From: Minutocellus sp. GHC0000111
Taxonomy: Eukaryota
Direction of reading: 5' to 3'
DNA: 64,000 bases
Assembly: GCA_977018835.1 (NCBI GenBank)
Contig: OZ361256.1
Span: 6,324,001 to 6,388,000 of the forward strand
The notes under the pieces are model-generated. The model saw only the letters and a list, made by a program, of their open reading frames with translations, was not told where the DNA came from and did not search any database. Each line of letters starts with the position of its first letter. The first letter of the stretch is position 1. Made by a program: the position numbers and the translations under genes. This document shows, piece by piece, positions 5,360 through 45,059 of this stretch.

Positions 5360-6017
5360 CAAAAAAGCACGAATGATGTGCAAAAAATGAACAGCACGAA
5401 AAGGTGCACAACAGTTGTGCCGGGAACATCAGCATGGCCGACCCAGCGATCCATCGTGGCACGAAGACAATGTGAGGCAGTGGCCACAAGTGAACATGAG
5501 GCCGACAGCAGACACGGTGCCGTGTCTGCTGTCAGGTGACACCCTTCTGTGTGGCGGGCTAGCGGCGCTGTGCTAAAGGTGCCGTCGGAGGAAACGGAGA
5601 CGCAAACAGCGCAAAACCGCCAAGACAGATGTGCAAAGAACAGCGCATGTGATGCGCTTGCGCCCTTGTTTGGTGAAAGGGCGACGCAGGATAAGTGTAA
5701 TCGTGGAGCACGGCAGCACAGAACTCTGCCAGCAAAAAGTCGAAGGCAAGCAGAAATCATGGCAGATTGGGCGTCGTTCGCGCACCGTCTGTCACAGACG
5801 GCGTACGCAAATCTGTACCTGGTCCCGTTTGCTGGCAGATTGTTTTGATCGCAGATTGGTCACAACACCCGCCAAGCCCAAAAACCCGGAGTTCATGTCG
5901 CTGATGCGCTTTTGCTGGTGGCCGCTCGCTCATTCAATCAAAGTCAGCCTTTGCCGAAACTGGTGAGAGAGTACCACTACGAGCTGCTGCCTTCGTCGCA
6001 TGCAGCGCTATTGAGAG

Positions 6018-13280: not shown

Positions 13281-13356
13281 TGATGTGGCGATGCTGCTGC
13301 TGGCAGTGGTGTCATCACTACTTCCGGTCGTATCTTTTGTCGTCGTCTTTGTGTGA
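12380..13356. repeat. 977-bp segment duplicated in inverted orientation at 24469-25445
   Basis: Identical ORF translations on opposite strands; coordinates sum to 37825. Confidence 0.95.
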
Positions 13357-13409
13357 ATGAACGAGGTGCCGCGCCCGTGAACACAACATAACTTAAAAGC
13401 ACCGCAGGA

Positions 13410-15134: not shown

Positions 15135-15332
15135 TCCTCAGTTACCTTCATCTACAAGTTCAACGGCGTGAAGCGGGAGCTAAAGAAGCTCAAGCTCATC
15201 CCGGATTGGCTGTGGTGCGAGATCCGGGACGAATGCATCGTACTGCCGATCCGAGGCGAGTATCATGCCATCATTCAAGATGAAGACGAGATGGAGGCCG
15301 AACCGTCGCGTCGCACGAACGCGTCCATTTGA
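14883..15332 (+). CDS. Antisense accessory ORF (149 aa) inside mariner A copy 1
   Basis: Globular-like composition, strong C/G third-position bias, followed by an AT-rich UTR-like tract before the TIR. Confidence 0.5.
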   Translation: MLSFDFRPRHKWIEHMLTAVLAIIIDQEKTLKIDGPEDFEKHMLLNVVSRLVCRAIRAENMPLDMDDVVAITESVYDKAAEMFHSSVTFIYKFNGVKRELKKLKLIPDWLWCEIRDECIVLPIRGEYHAIIQDEDEMEAEPSRRTNASI

Positions 15333-15572
15333 TTAGAGCCGCTGAAATCTAAAGTCTTATCCGAATTATTGTTTCACATGAAGATAAATCAAAATTAGAG
15401 TAAAATTAGCCATTTTCTTAAATATTTCAGCATGACTATTCTTCGAGGCGCTTTTCAATCCCCTCGAAAGCAGTCAAAAACCGGGCGCTCGATTTCTCGC
15501 GAATCTGACCTCGTACACGTAACAGCGTGGAGGCCGGCCAAACTGCTGCTGCCATAATAACCCATCACCACC

Positions 15573-19562: not shown

Positions 19563-19859
19563 GGGGCTAAAAATGAAAAAAAATGGGACCGAGCCGATAC
19601 GGCCGATTTCGGATACGTGGCGATGACGCTAAAAATGCCGCCGGGCCGGCCTACGCATACGAGGTCCGAGACAGCAATTTCGGGGACCCGGTTTTTTGGG
19701 TCTTTGGACTTTCCGACACGGCGGTTTGCGCGCACCTTGAAAAACACGCGGCAAAGCAAGCAAATCAAAACACATCCGTCAACAACCGACCTCCAAGCAA
19801 TTACCACAAATAGACTGGGCAACTTCTGCCGACTGGCGCTTCAAGAAGCTTCCATACTC

Positions 19860-20998
19860 ATGGATACTCCAAAGGGACACGTCTTCAGTCCACCGCGTCC
19901 ACCGAAACGCGCCGAGGCGACTGCATTCAGCCCCTCGCGCCATGAGAGAAGGAAACTTCCAACGAAACGCCGGAACATCCTCGGTATCGAGAGAACAAGG
20001 ACAACGATGACGAGGAGGACAACCAAGGGGTCCCACCGGCATCGTCAGACCTCACATCTCCTCGTGTGTTGAAATATCGACGCGAGTACAACGAAGAGGA
20101 TGGCTTCGCCGCCGAACAAGCCCAAGCAAGGAAGTACTTGCATCATGACATATTGCGTGCCGACTTTCGCGGTACCGCTACCGTTTCATCTCATTCTGAT
20201 GAAGATGATTCATTCTCAGAGATGAGCATAGCAACCGCCGACGCAAAGCCAAGCGGCGAGAGGAGAAAGCCCGTGAGCTCATTCGACCTTCCCTCCGCCA
20301 CGCCCATGGTAACAAGTCCAATGTCAGTTCATACTCAGTATGCTCTTACCCCAAGCCGCTCATGCCCGTCGTTCAGCAACCTTCAATTGTCATCCCCTAC
20401 CATCTTGGAGCCCTTGCCTCCAACCGAACCAACCGAACGACAGATTGAACGAGAGGTTGAGGAACATCGGAGGCTTGCGTGCTTTTTGACGTACGGAGAA
20501 GCACCACTACCACAAGATATAAAGAACTACAAGTCACCCACATGTAGTCAGAGGCCCGAACCAAGAAGAAAAGAGAAAGGGGTCTACCTCCCCTTCAAAC
20601 AAGTTCCTGGTTGGGGTAGCGAGGTCGCGGTCACCACAGTGCTAGGCATGATCGAAGTCGATCGCCAAGTAAGAGAGGGTCGTGGTGCCTACCCGAAAGG
20701 GTGGAGAAGCAGAGAACTCGGATTGTATGATAACAAGACAATAGAATTCTCTATTGCATTATCTACTGACAAGATTGCATTAGATGCATATAAGTTGGGA
20801 TATGAGGATGGGAGTAAACAACCAACTGCTCACCCTGCCCTCACTGACAATAAACTTGCCGATGCATATGGTGTGAAGCGCGGAAAGATTCGTCAGTCCC
20901 TCCACGCTGTGTGGCTTTCTAATGATCATAAGAAGGCCAAGGAGGCAAAAAAGAATACCGGTAGAAATAGAAGAACAAAGAAGCCCACCGTGACATAA
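19860..20998 (+). CDS. Mariner B accessory ORF, convergent with the transposase; possible C-terminal HTH; frameshift near 19990
   Basis: MDTPKGHVF... joined by one frameshift to ORF 20066-20998; LTDNKLADAYGVKRGKIRQSL is HTH-like; lies inside the TIR. Confidence 0.6.
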
Positions 20999-21093
20999 AC
21001 AAACCAATGCTGCTGCATCTTACATGTAGATCTATAAATAATTTGTAGACGTGTAACATTTATTTAATACATGTGTAAAGACATTAATACTAT

Positions 21094-22671
21094 CTATTTA
21101 TTAGAAGGATGACGAGCTGAGGGCTCCATCCCCTTGGCCGTTTCGTTGAAGTCGATCCTAATTCCAGTGTGCAAGTTTTCGTCACCCAACCTTCCAACAA
21201 ACTCATTGCTACCACCGGCCTTAATCACCAGGCCCATTATCCTCCAGTACTGAATGAAGGCCGAAGCAATTTTGCAGTTAGGCATGCTATCGTAAACGTC
21301 CTCGGCAGTGTCCCAGATCTGGTCGGTGGAAATGACGGAGGTGCCTACCATTTTTCGTGCCCATTCCGAGTGCCGCCGGCTCATCGCGGGGAACACGCTC
21401 AAGTCAAGGACGTTGGCGTGAGGCATCTGCGGTGCCTGTGGCTGCCACGTCCAGCCTTGCTCAGCACAGAAGTTAGTAACAAATTGCGTGAAGGTTCCGT
21501 CCTCGTGAGGCCCGGCCTGGTCGCCCTGGATAATAACATGGCAATCTTCGTATTGCTTGCCCGGACCGACAAGGTTGAGAATCGCTGGGAAAATAGTCTC
21601 CTTGAATACGAGGAGCAAAGAGCATTTCGGATCCTTTTTGGTGCCTTCGTTCGATCCAGTAACGCAACAATCAACAAGAAACGACTCTCCTTTCCGGCGA
21701 AGAGGTTCCTTTGGTGTCCCATCGGGGTTGGTATTTGGGTACCGTATTGAACCATAAGGCTGTGATACTGCTTCGTACTGAGCTCGCTCCGCTATTTTAG
21801 GAGCTTGAGCTCGTACCAGTGGCAGTTTTACAACCTCGCACCCACTCTCAAGAGAACCGTCAAAGACAGCGGCAACAAATGCAATGGCCATGACCTTGTT
21901 GATGTGGCTCCTGTGAAAGGCCGCGTAATCTCGCTTTTTCACGCCGATTTCCTCGCAAGCCTTCGCAAAAGCTCGGAGGACGAGACCCCAGAACCATTTC
22001 TCATCGTAGTGCACGAGGAGAACTCGCTTCTTTCCATTCGGTAAATTGCCGTCCGTTTGCGCCTGTCCTTGGCAATTGAATCGGTATTGAGGCCGAGTGG
22101 GATCGGGGTGATGGCCTTGAGAGGCACATTCTTCTTATGCATCATGCCACCAAAAGGCTTCTCATGCTGGACATCGCAAAGAGTACCTCCACCGACACCT
22201 CGACTGACCACAACAAATCCCTTGCCCTCAGGCCGATTCATGTTGGGACTGAAGTCGGCAGACACAAGGACACATTCCCCAGTGCTGATGGCAGGTCGCA
22301 TGTTATCTTCTTCCATTCTCATTGCTTTCTTGCGTTCGGGTGGTGCATCCGTCGGCATCCTGTGCGACCGAAGATGTTCACGCATTTGCACCCTCTGCTC
22401 CAAATGACGCATCGCCTCCTTCATTTTGTTCCTTTTCTTCTCGGCATCGGCCATGGCCTTTTCATCCTTCCTTCCGCTTTTCTCGTTTCAAGGTGTCCCT
22501 TAGCCCTTTCAAAGCCTCCTCTGCAGCTTTGTGTTGCGCTTCGGCCTCAACCAGCAGCACATCCAAGTTCTCCTCGGTCGATCCACCAGAGTTGGCGGTG
22601 CCGGTAGCAGAAACACCGACACTGGCAGGATTGCCAGATTCTTCACTGTTGCCGCTTCCATCCACCACCAT
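21094..22671 (-). pseudogene. Mariner B transposase, internally deleted and frameshifted (DD38D)
   Basis: VHYDEKWFWG, IQGDQAGPH, PQMPHANVLDLSVF; region expected before the catalytic domain is missing (junction ~22045); N-terminal pieces in other frames. Confidence 0.85.
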
Positions 22672-23207
22672 GGACTCTCGGCGATGCCCCCAGCTTCGAC
22701 ATTATCATCACCAGGACGAGCAGCGATGCCAGCATTGTCCTCGACCGTCGGCTCAGGGCTGGCATCGGCGTTGTTGGATGACGAATTGCGCCGAGCAACG
22801 CGGTCTGGCAGAAAATGTCAATGATCCTGCCTCATCCAATCCCGGCCGACGTCGAGGACGATCTGTCTTAAAGACAGATCTCGAGGTATTTGCGTGTCTT
22901 TCGACGTGGAAGCTGCGTTGCTCACATCCTCCCTTCGGCGTCCGGATTGTTCACTTCCGTCAATCACTTCTCAACACTTCACCCGGGGTGCCGTGGTGTA
23001 GAATTCATTGCACTTCAGCTTTTATGGCCAATGCATCCAGGCAAAGTAATACAGAAATTATCGGCGGTCCCCAACGAATTACTCTCCTCTGCGAAGCCAG
23101 ACCCATCCTCCTGACCACGCGTGCTCAAAAGGAAATCTCTCCTTCTCTCCATCATCACCCTTGCCGCAACCGCCACGTCCCCTTGCATTCACCGACTATC
23201 GAACTCA

Positions 23208-23461
23208 CCCTCATAATATTCCTCAGCCTGTGCCCCGCCGGCCACCATACTGAGCTTGCTCTTCAAATTCTGCGCGTACGGGTTGGCATCGTCAATCTGA
23301 GCCAAAAGGTTCGAGCAACTGTTGCCGCTGCTGGTGGTGGTGGTCTCCACCGTTCCGACCAATCCCACCGCCGAGCCCGAGGGGACGTTGAAGCCCTCCA
23401 CACCGCTCGACCAGGCCGCCGTGCCGACGAGGAGGGATGCGATGGCCGTCTTGAGGTTCAT
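23208..23461 (-). pseudogene. First exon of a probable plastid-targeted protein; rest of gene not found
   Basis: Signal peptide ending VEG-F plus Ser/Thr-rich transit-like peptide, then donor GTGAGT near 23207; no downstream exon recognised. Confidence 0.5.
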
Positions 23462-23849
23462 CGTCTTGCTCTTCGTTCTACTACTGAGATGATGATGGGA
23501 GATGGGAGCGCAAGTTGCAGTCCGGTGCCGAAACTCAAAATCGGCACGTCAGAGACGTACAAAGAAAAGACGTTCTTATGGAAGAGTGCAAAACAAAGCT
23601 GGCCGCGCTTTTCTGCCGTCCGCCAATCACGGAATCGGCGATACTGAGGAGACGGACACCACTAAACCTATAACGTGCTTGTTTTGCTGCGTTAAGCCCA
23701 GTAGAAAGGCGGCGATAGTTATTCCTCTTGCGCATTCCGAGTGGCGCCGATCGCTTGTGCTGCCTTTTGTGCTAGAGTAGACTTACGCCTGAATGACGAC
23801 ACAGTCGGAGAGGGGTCGTCCACTCCACCAAATCCTCCACTTCGCCAAC

Positions 23850-24507
23850 ATGACCATCGAAGAGCTCCCAGGAACACCAATCCCCCCCTTCACCGAGCGC
23901 CAAGGCAATGCTTCGAGACGTCTCTGATGCCGCCAAGACGACAATGACTCTTTGGAAGAACAGGCTGTACGGAGGACAAGGAGAAAAGAATGCGGCCGCA
24001 TCATCATATTCGTCAGAAGAAGAGATGCAAGAGAGCGAGAGCAACAGGGAAGACCAAAAAGAAGAGACAACCACCACGGAAGGGAGAGAAGAATGCAATT
24101 ACGTTCAGTACAGAATCATCACTAGGCGCATGTCTGCTGTCATCGAAATTGGCGAAGATGGTGGTTACAAATCTACAGTAGCCGCCGATTGTCAACTCAT
24201 CCCCGGATCTCCACTTCCAGTCGTCAAGCAAGATGAGGTTATTATCATGAAGCACATCGCATCGGACACTTCAGATATGACCATTGAAACCTCACAAGAG
24301 ACGTGTGCGGAATCGGTTGCCTCAATTACCCAAGAACTCGTCTCCATAGAGTCTAATGGAGAAGATGACGCTGCCTCACAGGACAAACTCACCCAGGAGT
24401 CCGCCGAGGAAGCTGCAGAAAGTTCAGAAGAGCAAGGCAACGAGTATGTGCCCGCAGCGTATTCAATGTCACACAAAGACGACGACAAAAGATACGACCG
24501 GAAGTAG
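23850..24507 (+). CDS. Acidic hypothetical protein fragment fused upstream of the cystathionine gamma-lyase fragment
   Basis: ATG 23850 with 1-bp shift in the C7 run to ORF 23908-24507; E/S/D-rich. Confidence 0.45.
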
Positions 24508-24544
24508 TGATGACACCACTGCCAGCAGCAGCATCGCCACATCA

Positions 24545-25445
24545 AATCCGACCGGTGCCGTCGTTGAGCCTATATCCCTGGCAACAACCTTCGTCCAGCG
24601 CAGTCCCGGCGTCCCGATGGGACTCTCGGATCCCAACAGCTTTGGCCTTGGTTACGAGTACAGTAGAACTGGCAATCCAACTCGAGGGTGAGCGAGTTCT
24701 GGTCTACTTTTGTGTTGTCTCAATGATGCAATGATTGCATTCGAATTTGACTATTCTCATCACCAACAACTCAATTTCTTCCGTCATCATTAATTGAATG
24801 CCAGAGCTTTTGAGCGAGCAATGGCACAAGCAGAGGGCGCCAAGCATTGCGCGGCGTATGCTTCTGGAAGTGCCGCGACCGCAGCAGTACTTCACTTGCT
24901 CCGACCTACGGACAATGTGATTGTCATTGACGACGTCTACGGTGGAACCCAACGATACTTCCGCCGCATTGTATCGCCCTGCATGAACATTGTGAGTTGA
25001 TGCATGTGAAGTGTGATTCATGTAGGCAATAAAAATCTCACAACCAATTCCGTATATTTTGTCGATATCAAATCCAATCGATCCAAATTCTTTCCTTTTC
25101 TTTACATGTTTCAGACTTTTGATTTCGTCGACTTCTCTGATCTGGGACTGCTCGAGTCCAAGCTGATGGAGGGCAAAACAAAGCTGCTCTGGCTGGAGAC
25201 GCCAACCAATCCCACTTTAAAAGTGTCCGACATTGCCGCGTCCGCCAGCCTTGCTCATAAACATGAAGCCATGCTGGTTGTAGACAACACTTTTTGTAGT
25301 CCATATACTCAGAATCCACTTGAAATGGGCGCTGATGCCGTAGTCCATTCAGTTAGTGAGATTTGATTCGTTGATTGTGTGCGCATGTTGACCTTTCTCG
25401 TAAGAGTTCTAGTATTGATCATCATATCATCTATCAATGCGATGT
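24545..25445 (+). pseudogene. CTH: Cystathionine gamma-lyase fragment (exons 1-3), broken in intron 3
   Basis: Inverted duplicate of 12380-13280, joined to mariner B arm at 25446-25455. Confidence 0.9.
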
Positions 25446-25454
25446 GTGATGGCA

Positions 25455-26638
25455 GAATATGTCCTTGTGTCTGCCGACTTCAGTCCCAACATGAATCGGC
25501 CTGAGGGTAAGGGATTTGTTATGGTCAGTCGAGGTGTCGGTGGAGGTGCTCTTTGCGATGTCCAGCATGAGAAGCCTTTTGGTGGCATGATGCATAAGAA
25601 GAATGTGCCTCTCAAGGCCATCACCCCGATCCCACTCGGCCTCAATGCCGATTCAATTGCCAAGGACAGGCGCAAACGGACGGCAATTTACCGAATGGAA
25701 AGAAGCGAGTTCTCCTCGTGCACTACGATGAGAAATGGTTCTGGGGTCTCGTCCTCCGAGCTTTTGCGAAGGCTTGCGAGGAAATCGGCGTGAAAAAGCG
25801 AGATTACGCGGCCTTTCACAGGAGCCACATCAACAAGGTCATGGCCATTGCATTTGTTGCCGCTGTCTTTGACGGTTCTCTTGAGAGTGGGTGCGAGGTT
25901 GTAAAACTGCCACTGGTACGAGCTCAAGCTCCTAAAATAGCGGAGCGAGCTCAGTACGAAGCAGTATCACAGCCTTATGGTTCAATACGGTACCCAAATA
26001 CCAACCCCGATGGGACACCAAAGGAACCTCTTCGCCGGAAAGGAGAGTCGTTTCTTGTTGATTGTTGCGTTACTGGATCGAACGAAGGCACCAAAAAGGA
26101 TCCGAAATGCTCTTTGCTCCTCGTATTCAAGGAGACTATTTTCCCAGCGATTCTCAACCTTGTCGGTCCGGGCAAGCAATACGAAGATTGCCATGTTATT
26201 ATCCAGGGCGACCAGGCCGGGCCTCACGAGGACGGAACCTTCACGCAATTTGTTACTAACTTCTGTGCTGAGCAAGGCTGGACGTGGCAGCCACAGGCAC
26301 CGCAGATGCCTCACGCCAACGTCCTTGACTTGAGCGTGTTCCCCGCGATGAGCCGGCGGCACTCGGAATGGGCACGAAAAATGGTAGGCACCTCCGTCAT
26401 TTCCACCGACCAGATCTGGGACACTGCCGAGGACGTTTACGATAGCATGCCTAACTGCAAAATTGCTTCGGCCTTCATTCAGTACTGGAGGATAATGGGC
26501 CTGGTGATTAAGGCCGGTGGTAGCAATGAGTTTGTTGGAAGGTTGGGTGACGAAAACTTGCACACTGGAATTAGGATCGACTTCAACGAAACGGCCAAGG
26601 GGATGGAGCCCTCAGCTCGTCATCCTTCTAATAAATAG
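25455..26638 (+). pseudogene. Mariner B transposase, copy 2 (5'-truncated, same internal deletion)
   Basis: Catalytic ORF 25718-26638 identical in translation to 21094-22014. Confidence 0.9.
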
Positions 26639-26733
26639 ATAGTATTAATGTCTTTACACATGTATTAAATAAATGTTACACGTCTACAAATTATTTATAG
26701 ATCTACATGTAAGATGCAGCAGCATTGGTTTGT

Positions 26734-27872
26734 TTATGTCACGGTGGGCTTCTTTGTTCTTCTATTTCTACCGGTATTCTTTTTTGCCTCCTTGGCCTTC
26801 TTATGATCATTAGAAAGCCACACAGCGTGGAGGGACTGACGAATCTTTCCGCGCTTCACACCATATGCATCGGCGAGTTTATTGTCAGTGAGGGCAGGGT
26901 GAGCAGTTGGTTGTTTACTCCCATCCTCATATCCCAACTTATATGCATCTAATGCAATCTTGTCAGTAGATAATGCAATAGAGAATTCTATTGTCTTGTT
27001 ATCATACAATCCGAGTTCTCTGCTTCTCCACCCTTTCGGGTAGGCACCACGACCCTCTCTTACTTGGCGATCGACTTCGATCATGCCTAGCACTGTGGTG
27101 ACCGCGACCTCGCTACCCCAACCAGGAACTTGTTTGAAGGGGAGGTAGACCCCTTTCTCTTTTCTTCTTGGTTCGGGCCTCTGACTACATGTGGGTGACT
27201 TGTAGTTCTTTATATCTTGTGGTAGTGGTGCTTCTCCGTACGTCAAAAAGCACGCAAGCCTCCGATGTTCCTCAACCTCTCGTTCAATCTGTCGTTCGGT
27301 TGGTTCGGTTGGAGGCAAGGGCTCCAAGATGGTAGGGGATGACAATTGAAGGTTGCTGAACGACGGGCATGAGCGGCTTGGGGTAAGAGCATACTGAGTA
27401 TGAACTGACATTGGACTTGTTACCATGGGCGTGGCGGAGGGAAGGTCGAATGAGCTCACGGGCTTTCTCCTCTCGCCGCTTGGCTTTGCGTCGGCGGTTG
27501 CTATGCTCATCTCTGAGAATGAATCATCTTCATCAGAATGAGATGAAACGGTAGCGGTACCGCGAAAGTCGGCACGCAATATGTCATGATGCAAGTACTT
27601 CCTTGCTTGGGCTTGTTCGGCGGCGAAGCCATCCTCTTCGTTGTACTCGCGTCGATATTTCAACACACGAGGAGATGTGAGGTCTGACGATGCCGGTGGG
27701 ACCCCTTGGTTGTCCTCCTCGTCATCGTTGTCCTTGTTCTCTCGATACCGAGGATGTTCCGGCGTTTCGTTGGAAGTTTCCTTCTCTCATGGCGCGAGGG
27801 GCTGAATGCAGTCGCCTCGGCGCGTTTCGGTGGACGCGGTGGACTGAAGATGTGTCCCTTTGGAGTATCCAT
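26734..27872 (-). CDS. Mariner B accessory ORF, copy 2
   Basis: Translation identical to 20066-20998; same frameshift. Confidence 0.6.
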
Positions 27873-28176
27873 GAGTATGGAAGCTTCTTGAAGCGCCAGT
27901 CGGCAGAAGTTGCCCAGTCTATTTGTGGTAATTGCTTGGAGGTCGGTTGTTGACGGATGTGTTTTGATTTGCTTGCTTTGCCGCGTGTTTTTCAAGGTGC
28001 GCGCAAACCGCCGTGTCGGAAAGTCCAAAGACCCAAAAAACCGGGTCCCCGAAATTGCTGTCCCGGACCTCGTACGCCTACTAGTACGCCTGCTGATGGC
28101 TTGCCCCGACCCACCGCCCACCGTCCATCGCGTACTGCGTCAACTACAAACAAGCGGGCCATTATTTGCTGTTACT

Positions 28177-29001: not shown

Positions 29002-30348
29002 TTCTCTCTGCTTGCAATGAATGCAGGCAAAAGAATACAGTCCGGACTGTATTCTCCAGCGGCGATGGCCCGTCGTGAAACGACGGTGGCTCCTAAGCCA
29101 GATTTCAACTGCACTAAATCTAGCTACATGTAGTTCGCAGTTGGGCTCCGGCTCTGATCGGTGTAATTCACAGTCGGACGTGTCTTCTTCTGTATGGTAT
29201 GTAATACATGTACATGTAACTGCATGCATAACGTCCCACATCGAAGGACCAGGAAGAAGCGCTGGTTTCCGCCCAGTCATTTCTTTTTGACAACCTTTCA
29301 TTTCTTTTTGACAAACATGCGATTTTGCCACATCAGAGTACGGGCAAACAAGTGCGAGCGAGGTCATCGTCAAGCAACCGCCGCCTTTCCGCTTTTGCCC
29401 CATCGCCATTTCTCCTCCACCACGTGCTCAACCATGTCCTCTTCTACTGAACCAACCCCCATGACGAAGGTCCTGATCTTTGGCGGCAAGACAGGATGGA
29501 TCGGCGGTTTGATGGCCGATCTCGTTAACAAGCAAGAGGGTAAGTCCGAAGTGGCGCATCGCCGATGCTGAATGCGATAGATCGCTCGGGCATTGGTGCG
29601 CATGTATTGTGGAGGATTTTGTTTGTCCAGCGTTTGTTTCCCTGTACCCCGTAACTAGATTGATCATTTGACTTCAAGAATATCGCCTGGTCGAGTCGCC
29701 TGCAAAATGTTGTGCTCGGTCTCGCATGCTCCTTCTCTCTTGCTCATGCTCACATTTGGTCCGATGCAATTCACATACATGTATCCACAATAGGAATGGA
29801 ATGTTTCCTTGCGGAATCGAGGATTGAAAACAGGGCTGACGTAGAGGCTGAGCTCGAAAAGATCAAGCCAAGCCACGTCCTCATGTCGGCGGGCATTACT
29901 GGCCGCCCCAACATTGATTGGTGCGAGGATCACAAGCCAGAGACGATGTCATTGGCACTCTCAATGTCATTGGCACTCTCAACGTAGCGGACCTTTGTAG
30001 TATGAAGGGCATCCACTGCACCATCTACGCCACCGGCTGCATCTTTGAGTACGATGAGAAGCACCCCATGGGCTCCGGAATCGGCTTCACGGAGGAGGAT
30101 TTCCCAAACTTTGCCAAGTCGTTCTACAGCGAAACCAAGGGTTACATGGAGCAGATGCTCAAGTGCTATCCCAACTGCCTCACTCTGCGTGTTCGGATGC
30201 CCATCTCGGATGATCTCATCCACCGCAACTTTGTGACGAAGATCGTCAAGTACGAGCGGGTTGTGAACATTCCCAACTCCATGACTGTGTTGACGGAGAT
30301 GCTCCCCACATCACTCGCCATGGCACAGAAGGGCCTCACCGGTGTGTG

Positions 30349-33300
30349 CCTTTCGGTTTCAGAGGATTTGTAGAGGGTATACCAATAACCCCTAAAAAAG
30401 GTCATTCTTGCACCCATTTCTCATTTCCCACCACGTGTTTTGTTAGTCGACATTCTCTTCGGGAGGAACGCAAATACTCCTCAACTCGTGGATATCTACT
30501 GGACCTGCTCATTCAGTAGGTTGCCACCGACCAGTAGCATCCACTGAATTCGCAGGTCCAGTAGATTCTGGCAGGAACACACATGTTTTTTAGTCCCCCG
30601 CACACCCTCTCACCGCAACCCGCAAATTTTGTGACGATGACGACGACCAACCAGACCACGCCCAAAAAATACAAACGCAGCAGAACTTCGTTCTCAGGGA
30701 GCAAGAGAGGCAACACCAAGGCATCCAGGAAGGTGGCAAAGGCGGCAGCTGAGCCGAAAACACCATCGCCGAGCGCAAACACGTCGAAGAAGCGGCCACG
30801 GTGGTCAAATTCGCGCCCGCCAAACCGTCACCGTCGTCGGCGAAGAAGAGGACGGCCCCTCCTCCTATCCCCATGGCCTTTCTCCTTGCAGCAGATGTCA
30901 TTCGAAGGGCTGGTAAGGATCTGTGGTGGAGAGTAACCCCCGATTCCTGCGGCAAAGATGACATTTGTGTTGGTTCTCGGCAGAAATGGGAAGAAGAAGA
31001 CGTCCTCCCTGCTTTCATCGAGGCCGACTTGTTGCGTTCCAAGTCCGTCGGTGGAGGAAAGTATGAGCTACAGTGCAACGAGGAAAAATGGAAGGACATG
31101 CAGCAACATCTCAAGGAGCATTGTGGTTTGAAGTTGCACTTGTCGACGTGTCGGCCGAGAGGGAAGACAAGACGCAGGGAGCTTTGTGTTTGTGCTCACA
31201 GGTTGCGTAAAAAGAAGGAGGACAACCACCCGAAATTCTCTGGACCGGAGGGACAGAAGGTGCACGAGAAAAGAAATCCCGATGAAGTTCTGTTCTCTGG
31301 GCGCTCGACTGTCTTAGCTGCTAAGCTAGGTGAGAGGTTGTCAGCTCACAGAAAGGAGGCACAGTCAGCGCATTGCGAAGCAAGAGTGAAGTCACTAGTC
31401 GACGAGGCCAAGAAACTGGGTTGGATGCCAGCAAGTCTCCTCAGCATGCTGAAGGGAACTGGTGATACTTCCGCCACTGAAGCAGCTGCAGCCTCCCCCA
31501 ATGATGAAGGTTTAGGAGGAGCCGATGCTTCCGTTGTCTGTGCCACCTCCAGTGACATTGATGAACAGGTAAAGGTCGCTCTCGGCCTCGACTTTGTTGT
31601 TCGGATGGCCGGCCAACGATGACATGCTCCGTCCTCCTCGTCCCAATGCAACCGTCACCGAACCAACACCAATCAGAAAAGAAAAGCAGGCGAATGAAAG
31701 AATGCGGTTCAGCGCCGTGGCTCTCGCGGATTGGTGGGGGGATGCGGCGACCCAACTCGCACGTGTGAAGACAGGCAACAAATTGCAACTGCCGCGTGTC
31801 GGCAAGTTGCGTGCGATCACGGCCATGCCAAGTCAACCGGTGGTCCTCAGCTTTACAAGTTGAGAGACCAGCTCTACAAAAGCCTTGCTGATGGCATCAT
31901 TAATCCCATCGGCAGAAAGGAGGTTCGTGGAAGGAAGGCACACACGGACATGATCGAGGAGAAGGAGCCAGGATGTCTCCGCGAGCTGCATCGGCATGCC
32001 ACTCGGATGAAGGGTGCGATGGCAACCTTTAAGGAGCTAGCTGACTGTATGAGCGCAAAATCAGCTACTCCAGATGAAGATAGGCTGACAATTAGTCTCC
32101 ATCGTCTTCAGCTTTTTCGCTGGTGGAAAAAGCAAGGCGGCAAGGAGAAGTCGTCGATCGAGAAGCCGAGGCTCACCCCCGAACATTGCAGGAAGCGACT
32201 TGATTGGATCGAAAAGTGGGAGGACATTGCGACCGATCCCAACATTCCTGTAGCGCATCTTGATGAAAAGTGGTTTTACACTGCTACTCGGCGACGAAAG
32301 ATCAAGATGTTGCCACTTTCTGACGAAGAACTAAGCAGTCCGAACCTCGCGTCCATCCATGCTTCCGAGGCAAGCCCGAAAATTCGATCCAGAAGACACC
32401 CTGTCAAAGTTATGTGTCTTGGAGTTGTTGGCCGACCAATGAAGGATGAAACCAAAGACGTTGATTTCAATGGGCGCATCATGATCAAGAGAGTCGCCAG
32501 GGAGCAGAAGGTGGAAAAGCTTACGCGCAATCAGATTTCTCTCCAGATGCTAAGGTCAACGATGCGCTAAAAAATGACAAAGATTGGCGCGACATTTACG
32601 ACGAGAATGCTGACATGACCGCCGGCCATCTTTGCGACCACATTGCCGAAATCTACGGCCTTTCTGAGTTTGTTGCAGAGCGATTGGAACTTCAATACGA
32701 GGACTATAAATCCGACGGTCAGGCAAAAAGTCGCAAGCATGCCGCTGTTGGCTACAATCAAAAGATCTCGAGTCTCAAGCGACACACTCCTGATAGCAAT
32801 GGAGAGAAGGTGAAGGTTGAGATCGACGACCTTGAGCTCGGGGTGCGGTATCAACGGGGCGATAAGGTTACCAAGGACTGTAGCTGCGACTCCAAATGGA
32901 TGTTGGAGACTATGAATGAGGTCGGGAAGGCGATTCGAGACGCACATCATTGGGTGAAGTGGGATCCACAAAATGTTCAGGAGTCTGATGTTGTGTATCT
33001 CATGATGGACAATGCCGGCGGTCATGGGTCCAATGAAGCAGTTGAGAAGTACACCGAGGACCTCAAAAACAAACATAAGATTGAGATAATCCAGCAGGTT
33101 CCTCGGTCGCCCGAGACAAATGATCTCGGCATCTGGATGTCTTTGCAGTCGGCCGTCGAAAAGGAGCATCGCGGTCAGAAGAATGATGCGAATGCTCTTG
33201 ACAAGACTGTGATGAAAGTATGGGCCAATGTCGCATCAAAAGAGGCCTTTCTCAATGTATTTGGAAAACTTCCAGTGATATATAACAACATCAAGAGAAG

Positions 33301-33789
33301 TCGTGGCGGTAACAATCTTGTGGAGACCAGACGGGGAAAGGCTGGTCTCGCAAAAATTGCCGAGGAAGAAGCTGAAGAGGATGGTGAACCACTCTGGCCA
33401 ATTGATGCTCCCGGCGAAGATGTTGACATTGAGGACGACATAGATGAAGACGATGGAGTCATTGATTTGCTATAACTTATCATAGCATGTCCATTTCTAT
33501 TCATTACATTTTGATTTGGTGCTTCCAAAAATGTATTTTTTCCCGGGGTGAGGAATGCAAATGTCGAAAAAAATCATCACATAATGTACATTTATTGGTT
33601 CTGGTGCACAACATCTCTCGACTACATGTAGAAATTGGTGACCATAACTTGGTTCTTGCCCCGACTTCCATCTTGGCCGTCATTTATTCCTCGGAGTTAG
33701 AAAAAGTGAGCTTGGATTTTTGGTCTGGTGTGGTCGTGTTTCTAATACGTCATCATCACGTCACTTTCAAATCCTCTGAACTCGAAAGG
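30349..33789 (+). mobile_element. Mariner family C, full length (3.4 kb), both TIRs present
   Basis: 22-bp TIR CCTTTCG(GT/AG)TTCAGAGGATTTG; inserted in the TAC codon of GVYNF; flanks read TG and CA instead of TA. Confidence 0.92.
30637..33475 (+). pseudogene. Large mariner C transposase with several frameshifts
   Basis: AHLDEKWFY, KVMCLGVVGRP, MMDNAGGHG, QVPRSPETNDLGIWMSLQ; spread over five overlapping frames. Confidence 0.88.
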
Positions 33790-34660
33790 CACAACTTCAC
33801 CAACCCCGGGCGTTATCTCTCACAATGAGGTTTTGGACCTGTACAAGAAGTGCATCGACCCGACCTACACTTACACCAACTTCACGGTCGAGGAGCAAGC
33901 CAAGGCAATCAAGGCGGGCCGTTCCAACAATGAGCTGGACACCACCAAGCTCATGCGCGATGTGCCCGAGGGTGTTGTGATCAATGACATCAAGACCGCT
34001 TGCGATCTTTGCTTCCAGCGAATGAAGGAAAACCTGACGAAGCAGCACTACGGCGAGCTTCCCGATTCTCTCCCTGCTGCCGAGTTCAGGCGTTCTTAAG
34101 TGGCACATGCGCATGAAAGCTCGGCGGCGAAGGTTGGCACAGGAATGTACATCTCTTGGCCATAAACTTGACTTCATCGTCGACGCATCGGGTAGACCAT
34201 TGGTAGCAGATGCCGCCGGTGCCGGCACATGCATGCACCGTGCTCATCATCATCAGGCAGGATGAGACACATGTAGAGAAATGTCGTGAGGGAACGGATT
34301 GAGGTAGAAAGCAATAAGATGAACAATTTTGATTCCCTTTGGCGCAATTTAGTTGAGTGGTAGATTTCTAGCTAGATCTACGTTTCTTGATACGTTACAT
34401 GTAGTCTACCGGTAGCTAGCTTGATTTCTGCATTTTTCGAGAGTTTCGCTGGAGTTTCGAGGCTTTCGCTCGAGGGCGCGGGGCGGCGGACAGACATACT
34501 AGTAATTTCTAAATTACGCGAAGCGAAGATGAGAAAGCGCGCCTGCCGCAAACGGCGCACCTCCCCCAACCCAACGGCTCATCGACCGATACCGAACGCC
34601 GGCGAATGTATGTGAAAGCAGTCCGAGTTCTACGCAATTTCTACATAACAGAAGGGCACG

Positions 34661-36460
34661 ATGCCATCTGATCCCTTGCTGACCAACTCCATGATGGAAA
34701 TGGAGTTGGGAAGAGAATCGCGAATGGCGAAGGACATGCGTATGCGAGGCCGCAAAAATTGCGGCCATCACCAAGACAGGGTGAGCACTCAAGAAGGAAA
34801 ACATCAACGCCATGTCAGCTATGATAGTGGGGCTGGAGAGACAAGATCAACGTCGAGGATGACAGGTATCTCGACGGCATATGAGTATTGCGATACTATG
34901 GCGCCATCAAGGAGTGTCCACGACTATTCATATCCTTCTCATCCGACCTCGGCCGGATCGTCGGGCATCCCCCGTCACATTGTCGGTGGCGGCAGGAGGT
35001 CATCGGCGGCGGCCGCCGCCGATGATGGCTACAGAGATCCGCCTCCCCTTTCTTGGAGACTCGATCCAGATGAAAGCCTTAGCGATTGGACCCTAACCGT
35101 CGCCAGCACCGACAGTGTTCCCTGCAGCCCGCGAAGGAGGACCGAAACAGAACGTGCATCAGCTGCTGGCTGCACCTCTGACACCAACGAAGAAGCAGCA
35201 GATTGCCAATTGGATGACCTGGCCGATTCCATGCAACCGCCCGCAATGAAGTATCATGTACACAGGGCCCAGCTTTCGGTTGGGCCGCGTCGATCGGACT
35301 ACTTCGCCACGTTGTTCAAGAATCGACGACGAATGATGATTCGTGACGAAAGTGACCAAAGGCACGAGAAAGGGGCCGATGCATCCACTGATGGCACCTA
35401 CATTGAGCTCAAGGCATCGGCAGCTGCTGCATTTCCCATTATGTTGGATTTTATGTACTCTCCAATCGGAACGCCGGTCGAAGCAACGACTGAGTCGGCA
35501 GTCGCTCTTCGACATCTGGCATCTTGCTTCGGCATCAGAGAACTCTTCAATTGCGTGACGGACTTTATCAAGAGCGATCTTAGGCCAGAGACCGCACCAA
35601 CCTACTTGTTGGAAGCAGCGACATACAAGCACGACAAATTGGTTGCAGCGTCTCTGAAAATATGTGCAGAGTCGTTCAAAGATATCAAACTGAGTGCCAT
35701 GGTACTGCTCCCTCCAGATCTATTTGAATTGGTCGTTCAATCTCCTCATCTGGTTTGCGATAGCGAAGCGCTCAGTGTCAGAGTTGCCGCCTATTGTCGA
35801 TGCCGACCCGATGGAATCAATTTGGAGACGATCAAGTCGTTGACAGACGCTAAGATCATGCCACGCATTGCCCCAGATGAGGCTCTATTCTACATTCACA
35901 TGTTGTCCCTGCTCGGTGTTGACCTTCCGGATCCATCGAAGGGTGGTGCGGCGCCTACTCTTTACGATCGATGTGTTGCGGCATCGCCCAATGTCATTAG
36001 GGGAGCATTGCAGGTGAAGAGCTCTGCTCTGTGCACTCACACGTCAAACTTTCATGACCGCCACCGCCAAACCATCAATGACGACTACGATGATTTGCCT
36101 TCTGGAGTGAAAGTGGATTTGTTGGAATCTACCATCGCCGACACAGTTCACACGGCTGAGAAACGCACTATCTATATGGAAGAACAATCAGACAAGGAAG
36201 ATATCAGCATTGTGCAATATCCAGCAACAGACGATTTAAGGGATGAATTGTCGGCTGCGAAAGAAGTCATGACGGATCTACAAAGCGAGATAAAGCGCCT
36301 AAAGAGGAAGATGGAAAGGACCATAGAAAAGTATGAGACAAAGTTAAATGCTCGAGAGGATGAAGTGCAAAGGTGCAAGGAAGAATTGTCGAGATTTGTG
36401 CGCGTACCAAATGACTACGGTGTTTCTTTTTCACCGGCGTGCGCATACCAGGAGGACGTT
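34661..36460 (+). pseudogene. BTB/POZ-domain coiled-coil protein, 3'-truncated at the duplication junction
   Basis: LSWRLDPDESLSDWTLTV, YHVHRAQLSVGPRRSDYFATLF, AFPIMLDFMY; sequence switches to TadA duplicate at 36461. Confidence 0.8.
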
Positions 36461-36863
36461 GAATTGGCGTCTGCTCAATGCCACGCTATACAGTACCCTT
36501 GAGCCATGTCCCATGTGTCTGGCCGCGGCGCAGGCCTTTCGGTGCAAGTCGGTAGTGTATGGGGCACCAGATATGAGACTTGGAGCAGTGGAAACGCACA
36601 TTCGACTTCTGGATAACAAGCATCCATATCACGATGTTGAGGCCATTGGTGGAGTATTGGCGGAAGAGAGTGCGGCAATGCTGAGGGACTTCTTCCGCAG
36701 GAGGAGGACACAAGGGCGAAAGAAGGCTTCAGAATTTGGCAGGAGTACCTCAGGCGCAGTGCAGGTACAGAATGGCAACACAAAGAGGACAATAAGAAGT
36801 ACCGTACTTGGACGAATTTTTCCTTTATTCAAACGAATATTTTCCAATAGAAGGCGCGGGTAA
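36461..36863 (+). pseudogene. tadA: 3' half of tRNA adenosine deaminase (duplicate)
   Basis: NWRLLNATLYSTLEPCPMC...; lacks HAE motif. Confidence 0.9.
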
Positions 36864-36984
36864 GGGTAGATCAAATCGGCTAGCTAGCTGGAGCAATACG
36901 TGGCTAACTGACTATAATATAAACGCCCCTTTGTTTTTGTAGGAAGAAACATATCTTTAGGGTAAATTCCAACCATTTGTCTAG

Positions 36985-37983
36985 CTAGGCTGCGGTATTT
37001 CTCAGTTTTGCTTCCTCAAGCTCCAACCTGTTCCTCATCTGATTGCGTAGGGCACGCAGCTGTTCTTCCCTTCTCATCCATTCATTCTTCATGTTTTGCA
37101 GAGCATCCTCCTCTTCTTTTGAAGATTCAAATTTCTTCGACTCAAAACCTGACATGTCGCGAAGGAGACTTCCTCGTTTGCCACTTCCTGGTACCTTCAA
37201 CTTGACCAGTCCAAGTCTACTCACTGACTGAAGATGACGTGAGCTCTCCTCGAGAGTGCGCTTCTGTTCGAGTAAGTGTCGGCGGTAATCTTGGACGATG
37301 TGTTGTTGTTCTTCTTCTTCGGCCTCGAAGCTTTCGTTGATGGGGTCAGTCGCGGGACAATTGCAATCCTTATCAACCTTGTTCTGTGCTGCTTGCTCTC
37401 GTTCGACCTTGTCCAAGATGCGTTGCTGATACGCCCGTAACTCTTCCATCTTCTTTTCATTTTCCTCCCTTTCCCGTTGGATTTCATCGAGCATTTCCTG
37501 CTGCATGGCAATATGTTCTTTGAGCCGTTCTTCGAGCAAGGCTGCCTCATACTCGTCTTGGAATTCTTCCTGGTGTTCCTCTTCGGCAACTCCTGCTAGA
37601 AATTCCTTTCCTCCTTTATTCACGGATGTGGTGGCCATGGACGTAGTACTAGGCTCGGCGATGATGTCTCCTTCGTAACCACTTGTAGATGGGGCCTTGC
37701 CCTCATTTCGGGTGGTACCGCATGCTGCACAAGTCAAGTGGCGAGGGTTGTCATTGAGATAAGTGCAGAGTGTGCATGTCCAACTTGTATCATCGGCAAG
37801 GGACCAATTAGCGAATGACATATTAATCTCGTTGGAGGTCAGCCCGCCGTCGTCCTCAGTACCAGAGGAGGTCGTTCTGGTCCCTTTCATTTGCGCTAGA
37901 GCACTTCTCCTGTTCTCGTTCGGGTGCATGGTCGATGGAATATCACCGCCACTTGAGTCGACGAAAGCATTGGGATCTTCCAT
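36985..37983 (-). CDS. RanBP2-type zinc-finger coiled-coil protein, copy 1
   Basis: WTCTLCTYLNDNPRHLTCAACGT; E/K/Q-rich helices. Confidence 0.8.
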   Translation of the reverse strand: MEDPNAFVDSSGGDIPSTMHPNENRRSALAQMKGTRTTSSGTEDDGGLTSNEINMSFANWSLADDTSWTCTLCTYLNDNPRHLTCAACGTTRNEGKAPSTSGYEGDIIAEPSTTSMATTSVNKGGKEFLAGVAEEEHQEEFQDEYEAALLEERLKEHIAMQQEMLDEIQREREENEKKMEELRAYQQRILDKVEREQAAQNKVDKDCNCPATDPINESFEAEEEEQQHIVQDYRRHLLEQKRTLEESSRHLQSVSRLGLVKLKVPGSGKRGSLLRDMSGFESKKFESSKEEEDALQNMKNEWMRREEQLRALRNQMRNRLELEEAKLRNTAA

Positions 37984-38353
37984 GTCGTATCCTGACAGTC
38001 TACAATTAGCAAAAGTAAATGAGTGTGATGATAGTAACGAGTTTGGTCCTCACCCCAAATGATATCCGTGAATGCAGAGCGGATGTGGGAAGTTCCACAG
38101 AAAAGCCAAAGATAAGCCTGCATGTACGACCAGGCAAGATGCGACAAATTGCGGTCATGTCCTAATTGATCGAGATTTTCCGAAGGGAAAGTGGTCGTAA
38201 AGGTGCTTTTGAGTAATTATTTTTTGCCTTGTTGTGTCACATTCAAATAAGTCGATCGAGTCGATTCGAGTCGAGTGAGTCCAAACACAGCTATGTCGAG
38301 TCGAGTGAGTCCGAGTGAGGAGTCTTGGCGTCTTGGTGGTTGCGCGACTTGTA

Positions 38354-38448
38354 CGAGGTCAGATTCGCGAGAAATCGAGCGCCCGGTTTTTGACTGCTTT
38401 CGAGGGGATTGAAAAGCGCCTCGAAGAATAGTCATGCTGAAATATTTA
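38354..38448 (+). mobile_element. Solo left end of mariner A
   Basis: TA|CGAGGTCAGATTCGCGAGAAATCGAGCG, broken after 95 bp. Confidence 0.9.
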
Positions 38449-40138: not shown

Positions 40139-41044
40139 ATGTTGGATATTTCCGTTCGAGCGGTTGTATTTGTTCTAGCCTGTCTGATCTGTGCCAGCAG
40201 TCATGTTGCGTCCGGCTTGACAATGATGACCAAGGATGGCCCTCCCTCGTCGAGTGTGAGATCAAGGCCTCGGCATCATTCAATATTTCATCGCATACGG
40301 AGATCTTCCCCGCCTCCAACAATCGAACCACCACGCATAATATCGATGCTAGATGATGTGCCAGAACGAGATGTTCACACCAAGATGATGGGGTATGCAT
40401 TAGAGGAAGCTCGAGTCGCTGGTCAGATGGGTGAAGTACCGATTGGAGCGATAGTTGTGAGAGAAATACAACCAGGGGAAACAGTGCTGTCGTCGGGGAA
40501 TAGAAAATCGCAAAACACCACAAGTACAAACACAAGGCAGTTTGAGTTGATATCAACGGGCCGTAACCTGGTGGAAACCAACATGGATGCATCGGCTCAC
40601 GCGGAGCTCGAAGCAATTTTGAAGGCCGCTTCTCGTGTTGGGAATTGGCGTCTGCTCAATGCCACGCTATACAGTACCCTTGAGCCATGTCCCATGTGTC
40701 TGGCCGCGGCGCAGGCCTTTCGGTGCAAGTCGGTAGTGTATGGGGCACCAGATATGAGACTTGGAGCAGTGGAAACGCACATTCGACTTCTGGATAACAA
40801 GCATCCATATCACGATGTTGAGGCCATTGGTGGAGTATTGGCGGAAGAGAGTGCGGCAATGCTGAGGGACTTCTTCCGCAGGAGGAGGACACAAGGGCGA
40901 AAGAAGGCTTCAGAATTTGGCAGGAGTACCTCAGGCGCAGTGCAGGTACAGAATGGCAACACAAAGAGGACAATAAGAAGTACCGTACTTGGACGAATTT
41001 TTCCTTTATTCAAACGAATATTTTCCAATAGAAGGCGCGGGTAA
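40139..41044 (+). CDS. tadA: tRNA-specific adenosine deaminase, bacterial TadA type, with N-terminal targeting peptide
   Basis: GEVPIGAIVV, AHAELEA, WRLLNATLYSTLEPCPMC, LRDFFRRRR. Confidence 0.92.
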   Translation: MLDISVRAVVFVLACLICASSHVASGLTMMTKDGPPSSSVRSRPRHHSIFHRIRRSSPPPTIEPPRIISMLDDVPERDVHTKMMGYALEEARVAGQMGEVPIGAIVVREIQPGETVLSSGNRKSQNTTSTNTRQFELISTGRNLVETNMDASAHAELEAILKAASRVGNWRLLNATLYSTLEPCPMCLAAAQAFRCKSVVYGAPDMRLGAVETHIRLLDNKHPYHDVEAIGGVLAEESAAMLRDFFRRRRTQGRKKASEFGRSTSGAVQVQNGNTKRTIRSTVLGRIFPLFKRIFSNRRRG

Positions 41045-42164: not shown

Positions 42165-42534
42165 GTCGTATCCTGACAGTCTACAATTAGCAAAAGTAAA
42201 TGAGTGTGATGATAGTAACGAGTTTGGTCCTCACCCCAAATGATATCCGTGAATGCAGAGCGGATGTGGGAAGTTCCACAGAAAAGCCAAAGATAAGCCT
42301 GCATGTACGACCAGGCAAGATGCGACAAATTGCGGTCATGTCCTAATTGATCGAGATTTTCCGAAGGGAAAGTGGTCGTAAAGGTGCTTTTGAGTAATTA
42401 TTTTTTGCCTTGTTGTGTCACATTCAAATAAGTCGATCGAGTCGATTCGAGTCGAGTGAGTCCAAACACAGCTATGTCGAGTCGAGTGAGTCCGAGTGAG
42501 GAGTCTTGGCGTCTTGGTGGTTGCGCGACTTGTA

Positions 42535-44426
42535 CGAGGTCAGATTCGCGAGAAATCGAGCGCCCGGTTTTTGACTGCTTTCGAGGGGATTGAAAAGCGC
42601 CTCGAAGAATAGTCATGCTGAAATATTTAAGAAAATGGCTATTTTTACTCTAATTTTGATTTATCTTCATGTGAAACAATAATTCGGATAAGACTTTAGA
42701 TTTCAGCGGCTCTAATCAAATGGACGCGTTCGTCGCACTTGGACCGGTATACTGCTTCCCAACGAGTGCCGATGATTCATCTGATTCGGCCGCCTTCCGT
42801 TCTGTCATCGACGATCTTGCAACGGCGACCCGGCGGTATACTGCACCATGTCTCTTTGCAATTGCCAAGTGCAGGGAGCAGGCAAAGGTGGACTATTCGG
42901 TGCTGTCCAGCGCAGAGCATGGTGCACGATTTTCGGGATGGATGAAGGCAGGCGTATGGTGCTCTACCTGCATCTGAGAAGGCGATGTGGGAGATGAAGA
43001 GGAGATCTCATCTGGCTATGCAGCCATACATTCGAGATGTTATTGTTGATGCTCTGATACGAAATCCTCGGGAATCTTGGCGGGAGCTGGAGGTGGATGT
43101 CAACTTTTGGTGTTCGTTCCTACTCGGCAACACGGCGGTGGATAATGTCGCGGGAAGGGTTCCGGTACTATGCCGAAAGGATCATCCCTCTCCTTACTAC
43201 CCATCAGATGGAGAAACATTTGGCATTTGCGCGGAAATTCCGAAACAATTGGGGGCTCGGCGGTGGCAAGTTTCTCCTTGTTATGTTCGATGAGAAGTGG
43301 TTTTGGGGCTTGGTTCTTCGATCGTATGCCAAGCAAGTTGCAGAATTGGGTATTGATCCTCGGTCCTTCTCGGCATATCACCGAAATCACATCAACAAGT
43401 GCATGGTGGTGGCTGTCACTGCCTTGGCTTTTGTTGACAGCATTGAGAATGGCGGCATTGCGTTCAAGCTTGGACTTTTTCGGGCTCAGGCGCATAAAAT
43501 TGCGAGGCAGATGGTAAGGGAGGCGGTGCGGCAGGCAGATGGTAGAATCAAATATTGCGGCCCGGTGGTTCGGAAGAAAGACGATCTATACCTTGTGGAT
43601 TGCGCGGTGACTGGATGCAGCCATGGCACCCTTGATAATTCCAAGTTCCCACTGAAAGCTTTATTTGAGAACAAGATGTTTCCGGATGTTGAGGCTTTGG
43701 TCGGACCTGGTGGAAAGTTTGAAGGCTATGTCCCTATTTTTCAGGGCGACAATGCTGGGCCCCATGCCGAGACTGAATTTGTGGAATATGTGGAAGGATG
43801 CTGTCGGGACAAGGGATGGCGTTGGGAACCTCAGGCCCCGCAAATGCCCCATATGAATGTTCTTGATCTGTCTGTTTTCCCTTGCATGTCAAAGCGGCAT
43901 ACAATGTTGAGCCGCGATCGGGAGGGGCTGAAGGTTTTGACAGAAGATCAGACTTGGGATGCAGCGGAGGAAGTTTGGATGGGGCTGGAAAACTGGAAGA
44001 TCGCATCGGCATACATCCAGGCTCATAGAATTGCAAAGAAGGTAATCGTTGCAAAAGGCAACAATGATTTTCTTGGAAACGGTGAAGGCATTCATGTTGG
44101 GGTGCGAAAGGATTTCAGGCCGACTGAAAATGGCATGGTTCGGATAGATGGGAAAATTATCGCTCCTCCTCCTGCTGATCCAACCATGGATAATTAGTCC
44201 TGCGGTGCTTTTAAGTTATGTTATGTTTAAAATAATACTAGATTATTTAGATTCGAGCTATATTTGTGCTACTACACACACATGCCGTACATGCATGTGT
44301 AGTGCTCTCTTGTCAGTTTTGATGGTTCCGGCTTTACATGCATGTGTCCGTGTCCGGGTTGCGGGCCCAAAAATCGACAATTTTTGGTCCCGGCCCTGCG
44401 CTCGATTTCTCTCGAAACGGACTTCG
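42535..44426 (+). mobile_element. Mariner family A, copy 2, both TIRs and TA TSD
   Basis: tgTA|CGAGGTCAGATTCGCGAGAAATCGAGCG ... CGCTCGATTTCTCTCGAAACGGACTTCG|TAca (24/28 match). Confidence 0.93.
42720..44197 (+). pseudogene. Mariner A transposase, copy 2, frameshifted
   Basis: Near-identical to 13410-14862; two 4-bp duplications (~42947, ~43112); lacks 452 bp present in copy 1. Confidence 0.9.
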
Positions 44427-45059
44427 TACATGTTGCAATGTACATACATGTATGCCAGTAGAGAATATGGTTACTACGAGCAGTTTAGAGGATTTAGAAG
44501 TGGACCTGAACGGCGCTATGAGTAATTATTTGCGGCTGGTTTTGCTTGTTCTAACCTACTTTCTCCACTTTCCAACGCCTGAGCATGTCAACATGATAAA
44601 ACGACTATGTAGAAAATTGTTATACATGTATGCCAGTAACAAGGCAAATACATGTAGATACATGTAGATGTAAGGGAGCCGGTTTGTACAGCCTTTGTCG
44701 TTCGTTCATCAGCACTGTGTATGTATGAGATATCGGTAAATGCAGGAATTCCTACGCGGCGATCAAGGCAAGGAAAAACAAAAAAATAACATGCATTTTA
44801 AATATCAAACAAAGATCTATCTGTCTGTCTTTTGCTTCTGAGGGTGCATCAGTCCCTTGCTTGCCTCATGGGCTAATAATAACCATGGATTGCCTCTCTT
44901 GACGAAACGGCAGTATGCTTTGTTACCCATGCGTGATGTGTGTGTCCGTTTCATTGAGATGTTCGGCGGTGTTGCAGTGTGTTCGTATTGACTTTTGGGA
45001 GAGCCTGCCACCACAATGAATATCAAGCCATTGCGACCAGACTCGTCCTATTTAGACAA

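Follow-up and report, generated by a model that had tools for sequence, protein, structure and literature searches.

Evidence for directional TA-to-TG/CA hypermutation at a mariner insertion in a diatom gene

A mariner transposon that duplicates TA on insertion should be bordered by TA on both sides, and the locus described here raises the question of why one such element is bordered by TG and CA. The window analysed, a stretch of 64,000 nucleotides from the diatom Minutocellus sp. GHC0000111 (GenBank assembly GCA_977018835.1, contig OZ361256.1, positions 6,324,001 to 6,388,000 of the forward strand), contains a Tc1/mariner copy (family C) within a TAC codon of the NRS/ER gene, which encodes a 3,5-epimerase/4-reductase; the copy is preceded by TG (30347-48) and followed by CA (33790-91). 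The closest orthologue clusters of this gene are 95-98% identical and include proteins of Extubocellulus spinifer and Arcocellulus cornucervis, and the interrupted gene is presumably of the Cymatosiraceae type. An initial annotation, made from the letters alone, had read both flanks as mutated TA and had proposed a TpA-specific process running from A:T to G:C in several transposon families after their insertion, in the direction opposite to that of RIP (repeat-induced point mutation). The evidence presented here agrees with each of these points, and at the level of the sequences compared we conclude with high confidence that a TpA-directed mutation process has acted.

The state of the locus before insertion can be read from the other allele. 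Alleles were compared as assembled contigs of sequencing runs, among which runs X1-X3 are possibly the window's own source. In 4/4 runs compared (four studies), a contig joins 30347 to 33791 and restores TAC, and the surrounding motif GVYNFTNPG is present in 103/108 NRS/ER orthologues. Run X3 contains both haplotypes as distinct contigs, at depths of about 51 and 70; run X16 yielded no contig matching the host flank, which is not proof of absence. The left junction with TG is also found in one X2 contig, with 0 differences but only 26 letters past the junction. Among the 24 of 194 loose ends that were listed, junctions of other copies read TA in four cases, TG in two on the left and CA in one on the right, and a search of JGI metagenomes with the terminal repeat found one distant element only (L001), flanked by TA. 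Because the empty allele reads TAC and other copies have TA flanks, the TG and CA at NRS/ER are mutated target-site duplications; as the element duplicates TA, both duplications were therefore changed after insertion. The alternative that a G...C element inserts without a target-site duplication is ruled out by the TA flanks of the other copies.

The element resembles DD39D Tc1/mariner transposons in its TA target duplication, its short inverted repeats and the catalytic spacing of its relatives. The C-terminal frame of its transposase is 90% and 85% identical to the intact proteins P0001 and P0002, and the spacing between the second and third Asp is 39 in these two closest relatives and in 15/23 matches (38 in three, with five unscored). 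In the window copy itself the spacing is broken, a frameshift being present and two residues missing ahead of the third Asp.

The same change continues into the host gene. A complete table of differences between the window and the uninterrupted allele was drawn up for 33791-36460, and the part from 33792 to 34300 contains 18 differences, comprising 15 TA>TG/CA changes, one GA/GG difference and two transversions, so that 16/18 are A:T to G:C transitions. The 15 changes (7 TG and 8 CA, from 33852 to 34268) affect 58% of the 26 TA sites of this tract. By contrast, only 1 of about 213 other A/T bases is changed (TA bases versus other A/T bases, p=5e-11), and none of the 55 AA/TT steps (p=6e-6 versus TA); in this allele pair the lower bound of the rate contrast is roughly 40-fold per base (15/52 vs 3/457). 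Window letters were found in read contigs at 14 of the 15 sites, the exception being 34147. Two of the changes had been anticipated by the annotation from the NRS/ER consensus motifs YIDP and QAKVI, and the other allele and the orthologues agree on both: TGC at 33851 stands where 107/108 orthologues have Tyr and the uninterrupted allele has A at 33852 (TA to TG), and GCA at 33905 stands where 108/108 have Val or Ile and the uninterrupted allele has T at 33906 (TA to CA). The insertion-bearing allele is a pseudogene, with a frameshifting 17-nt duplication near 29948 (29948-29981) in its 5′ exon and an extra base at 33808 in its 3′ part. Short duplications and extra bases are frequent in this allele and in the element relative to other alleles and copies (29948-29981, 30607-31736, 33808, 34040-34090), measuring 17 nt in the host exon and 1-6 nt in the element and the 3′ exon.

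The mutated domain is bounded and one-sided. Its last change, at 34268, lies close to the end of the RNA contig of the intact allele (34303); the next 36 TA steps, up to 35245, are unchanged in the window, and the only TG-versus-TA difference from 34301 to 36442 is at 35656, in one run, and is unpolarised. On the left of the element, 23 TA sites are kept and one (29725) of 24 is changed (p=5e-5 versus the right tract; up to four differences in this flank are unlisted, and the value would be 3e-4 if one of them were TA). The NRS/ER exon adjoining the element on this side keeps all 6 of its Tyr, and a CG>CA change lies at 30308. Because, at site types other than TA, the left flank and the uninterrupted allele diverge at an ordinary rate, recent conversion does not explain the asymmetry; outside the tract the alleles differ by about 1%. 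In the window, hypermutation is centred on transposons and nearly absent from the left flank and the BTB gene of the insertion haplotype, yet 500 bp of the host gene are affected, and the description of the process as repeat-targeted proves too narrow, given that single-copy host DNA is changed at 58% of its TA sites. Clusters of a TACATGTA-like motif in intergenic DNA (34370-34420 and 44240-44680) keep their TA steps; the first sits just past the tract end and could mark the boundary.

A hint of a second one-sided case comes from the BTB gene. In three runs a family B element end, matched by eye to the end at 28072, is joined at TA 35300-35302, and because this insertion is absent from the window it is probably on the other haplotype. 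The X3 contig that differs from the window has TG/CA at three clean R-TA-Y sites left of 35302 (34591, 34609 and 34741; R, purine; Y, pyrimidine) and at two more in a poorly aligned patch, together with CG>CA differences; by the orientation of the in-window family B copies, this side is downstream of the transposase. Contigs of X1 and X8 are without these changes, and the case is unphased.

Within the tract, 11/13 R-TA-Y sites are changed, against 4/13 in other contexts. When changes from the tract, the element and copy pairs are pooled and Tyr-ascertained sites left out (n=43), R-TA-Y accounts for 26/43 changes against 70/236 surviving TA (p=2e-4) and Y-TA-R for 0/43 against 31/236, contrasts that are inflated by the use of survivors as background. 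A pyrimidine follows at 37/43 sites and a G at 3/43. The pooled outcomes are 22 CA and 21 TG. Their order along the tract is random-like, and 8 CA versus 7 TG in 8 runs versus 8.5 expected indicate no strand coordination; asymmetric sites are changed in both orientations (11 vs 6).

The transposase carries the same signature. At the 630 positions where P0001 and P0002 agree, 13/24 shared tyrosines are His or Cys in the window copy, whereas changes affect 2/60 Lys, 3/22 Asn and 0/11 Phe (p=6e-8), some of the non-Tyr changes being frameshift artefacts. The annotation's claim that Tyr had been replaced by His and Cys therefore holds for these 13 conserved residues, while DAHHWV and, in PGCLRELHRHA, the third residue are examples of its own that stay uncounted, P0001 and P0002 differing from each other at these places. 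In P0023, a further genomic copy, 10/14 Tyr are gone, and two sites that are Cys in the window copy are His. The listing of differences covered 40 of 77 rows, 28 of them in the element, and 22 of these 28 are read as TA class: 15 are changed in the window, two in the read majority, and five are partner rows, at which a single ancestral TA ended up as CA on one side of the comparison (window versus read contigs) and as TG on the other. The intact relatives have Tyr, Thr or Ile at these five sites, which fixes the ancestral dinucleotide as TA, not CG. Illumina RNA contigs from two other studies also have TG or CA at ancestral TA sites of the element. Changes of CG to TG/CA occur in the same regions, at 30308 and 30734.

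Other mariner families show the excess as well. Between in-window copies of families A and B, 13/23 transitions are of the TA class against 21% expected (p=2e-4), and 5/23 are of the CG class. Protein copies were also compared within three further families of mariner, where Y>H and Y>C together affect 44/473, 13/124 and 29/131 Tyr cells; their ranks among the substitutions are 1 and 2, 1 and 3, and 1 and 2, respectively. These 42, 15 and 15 sequences are the listed part of larger clusters and mostly come from megabase ENA contigs, possibly of the window's own assembly, and their Tyr cells share descent and are not independent events. A control cluster gave 0 Y>H/C in 260 Tyr cells; it is a weak control because its short metagenome contigs may be collapsed copies. 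The ratio of observed to expected TpA, which the annotation had proposed to compare between transposons and single-copy DNA, separates elements from genes poorly in the window: it is 0.39 in family C, 0.41 in the tract, 0.43 in the spared left flank, 0.48-0.62 in families A and B and mostly 0.5-0.6 in host genes.

Several known systems invite comparison. RIP of ascomycetes likewise wrecks transposons by dinucleotide-specific transitions, and it leaks into flanking single-copy DNA; it differs in changing C:G to T:A and creating TpA, whereas the process seen here has the opposite polarity and destroys TpA. Decay of CpG via 5-methylcytosine (5mC) turns a palindromic dinucleotide into TG or CA in silenced repeats, and a weak CpG signal is present in the window too; here, in contrast, it is TA that decays, and GC content goes up as a result. 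Enzymes of the TadA/ADAT2 and ADAR types change A to G next to a 5′ T/U, but act mainly on RNA, whereas the changes seen here are in DNA, on both strands of a DNA transposon and of a host exon; moreover, ADAR prefers a 3′ G, which the changed sites do not match. Closest is the recently described TpA hypermutation of the rhizarian alga Bigelowiella natans. According to the main text of the preprint, 230/231 mutations in two integrated viral inserts are A>G/T>C, and TpA is the site of all of these; mutation-accumulation lines acquired this spectrum de novo, with a rate raised about 1000-fold and activity in some lines only; TpA-poor genes are enriched in DDE-endonuclease and reverse-transcriptase domains; and an ADAT2-like enzyme is proposed (Mettrop et al., bioRxiv 10.64898/2026.01.13.699255). 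Confinement of A:T to G:C changes to TpA, with TpG and CpA arising about equally and on either strand, and occurrence in foreign DNA are common to both cases, so that the NRS/ER locus is a diatom, transposon-directed variant of this hypermutation and not without precedent. On the other hand, that preprint describes single-copy viral inserts, whereas the Minutocellus window concerns multi-copy DNA transposons and an adjoining host gene, and one-sided leakage and an R-TA-Y preference were not found in its main text, although the supplements may hold context data. A literature search by title or abstract start, with most subscription journals outside its scope, found no diatom report of TpA hypermutation.

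A mechanism has to account for what is established here, namely the direction, TpA exclusivity, R-TA-Y preference, lack of strand bias, restriction to the insertion allele and one-sided leak to near the transcript end. Our best guess, with a probability of about 0.45, is that an adenine deaminase of the host, acting on DNA that a transposon marks or transcribes, made the changes. After the mariner had inserted, such an enzyme would have turned TA steps in the element, both duplications and 500 bp of the downstream host gene into TG or CA, on both strands, by converting A to inosine, which replication would then have made permanent as G, presumably across several rounds. The extent of the target domain may depend on transcripts reading through from the element, or on silent chromatin ending at the next gene, and the outcome would be lasting damage to the transposase and slower excision. 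The 3′ pyrimidine preference of the changed sites resembles the U-A-C substrate of TadA-type enzymes. It is also tempting to speculate on an ancient defence common to diatoms and chlorarachniophytes, in which a DNA adenine editor would rewrite R-TA-Y across transposon-transcribed DNA and past the element to the next host terminator, erasing Tyr codons and mariner TA sites, with host genes as collateral; we regard this broader proposal as rather doubtful.

Several points weigh against the deaminase. At palindromic TA, A>G and T>C are indistinguishable from sequence, and because a T>C change opposite would leave the same letters, adenine deamination, as the annotation had it, is not established. 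The palindromic R-TA-Y context and the change of both orientations suit a double-stranded-DNA enzyme or mark as well as a single-strand deaminase, and editing confined to a single displaced strand, in its simple form, is disfavoured by the absence of strand bias. The rule that changes lie downstream of transcription is drawn from one clean tract, and the TA differences between the two family B copies are bunched at the other end, which is truncated (last 200 bp, 5/5 differences, both directions). Families A and B are barely TA-depleted, yet kept multiplying, and do not demonstrate a defensive role. Their ends in the window keep TA in 6/6 cases, and the annotation's view that the process destroys the TA needed for excision is overstated, this loss being a by-product. 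In the parts of the Hsmar1 reports consulted, symmetrical 5′-TG flanks, the same configuration as at NRS/ER although in a different mariner group, delay second-strand cleavage but do not abolish excision, much substrate eventually being cut (PMC2800235; PMC4344528). The TadA-type gene 6 kb away has no support as the mutator: it has Asp, as in E. coli TadA, and not the Asn tied to DNA editing in the main text of the preprint of Mettrop et al.

A genuine possibility, if not the expected one, is that TpA in silenced DNA carries a modified base, either an oxidised thymine such as 5-hydroxymethyl- or 5-formyluracil or else 6-methyladenine (6mA), and that this base yields C:G through mispairing, deamination or repair, like 5mC at CpG. 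The palindromic preference, the symmetric outcomes and the bounded domain resemble the behaviour of an epigenetic mark, and the CG>TG/CA changes in the same places, including those of the copy pairs, also favour it. However, eukaryotic 6mA lies mostly at ApT, and the loss of 58% of sites between alleles about 1% apart elsewhere is fast for passive decay. In the part of a 6mA survey consulted, its sole diatom, Phaeodactylum, had 5mC only (bioRxiv 10.1101/2024.10.28.620566). Patch synthesis over transposon regions by an error-prone polymerase (eta or iota type) that inserts G opposite T would yield symmetrical TG/CA at the duplications, as expected from G misinsertion in gap filling, and would fit the many short duplications in allele and element. 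Polymerase eta, however, changes A>G at both TA and AA (its WA signature), whereas AA/TT steps in the tract are untouched and Lys, Asn and Phe nearly unchanged; strand-coordinated runs are absent, and the changes reach 480 bp past any integration gap. This form of error-prone repair, the annotation's other suggestion, is thereby weakened and in our judgement unlikely.

It is very improbable that no targeted process acted and that the pattern stems from a relaxation of selection once the allele was dead, from GC-biased gene conversion or from the usual decay of CpG. The insertion allele is indeed a pseudogene, and TG/CA pairs are the classic product of CpG decay, but the other allele, the 108 orthologues and the intact transposases show that the ancestral dinucleotide was TA and not CG, the left flank is spared although it is just as dead, and neither drift nor conversion is TpA-specific. 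Equally hard to credit is a base-calling or assembly artefact at modified bases: the evidence consists of contigs, and runs X1-X3, possibly the window's own source, are of unrecorded library type, yet X3 has the two haplotypes as distinct contigs, window letters recur at nearly all tract sites, TG or CA replaces ancestral TA in the Illumina RNA contigs of two other studies as well, and P0023 has His where the window has Cys.

Natural A:T-to-G:C hypermutation of genomic DNA has so far been described in one preprint and one alga, and the diatom case points to a wider system. What the NRS/ER locus adds is an allele-paired, post-insertion case with a one-sided leak into a host gene; timing, boundary and R-TA-Y context, which scans of composition do not provide, are directly readable because the heterozygous insertion has an unmutated allele beside it. 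A DNA adenine deaminase, should that prove to be the agent, would be nature's equivalent of the adenine base editors made by engineering; a base mark would represent new epigenetic chemistry. The process also biases the building and dating of transposon consensus sequences in these algae.

Table 1. Features of the interrupted NRS/ER locus (window coordinates).
Feature	Position	Strand	Remarks
Host NRS/ER, 5′ part	29462..30346	+	intron 29539-29792; spared flank
Left target-site duplication, TA -> TG	30347..30348	+	empty allele TAC
Dead Tc1/mariner copy, family C	30349..33789	+	22-nt terminal inverted repeats; frameshifted transposase
Right target-site duplication, TA -> CA (TG on minus strand)	33790..33791	+	empty allele TAC
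Hypermutated host tract (NRS/ER 3′ exon and 3′ UTR)	33792..34300	+	15 TA>TG/CA, 11 TA kept
Beyond the tract: intergenic DNA (TA-rich) and BTB gene	34301..36442	+	75 TA kept

Elsewhere in the window, an element at 4272-5868, which is bounded by terminal inverted repeats that match imperfectly and in which no protein was recognised, has the window's minimum ratio of observed to expected TA (0.16) and is probably an older, nearly saturated target. The stretch 22200-22800, which adjoins the clustered family B changes (region 22085-22800), is also TA-poor (0.06-0.23). Families A and B are present as truncated, inverted and near-identical copies at 12380-15520, 19652-28080 and 42528-44436, and 977 bp are duplicated exactly (12380-13356 and 24469-25445), which suggests rearrangement driven by transposons. 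The bacterial-type TadA (tRNA adenosine deaminase) gene lies at 40361-40993; an exact 1988 bp duplication 4181 bp upstream (36461-38448) takes in the 3′ half of this gene together with its neighbour and an end of a family A element, and cuts the BTB frame.

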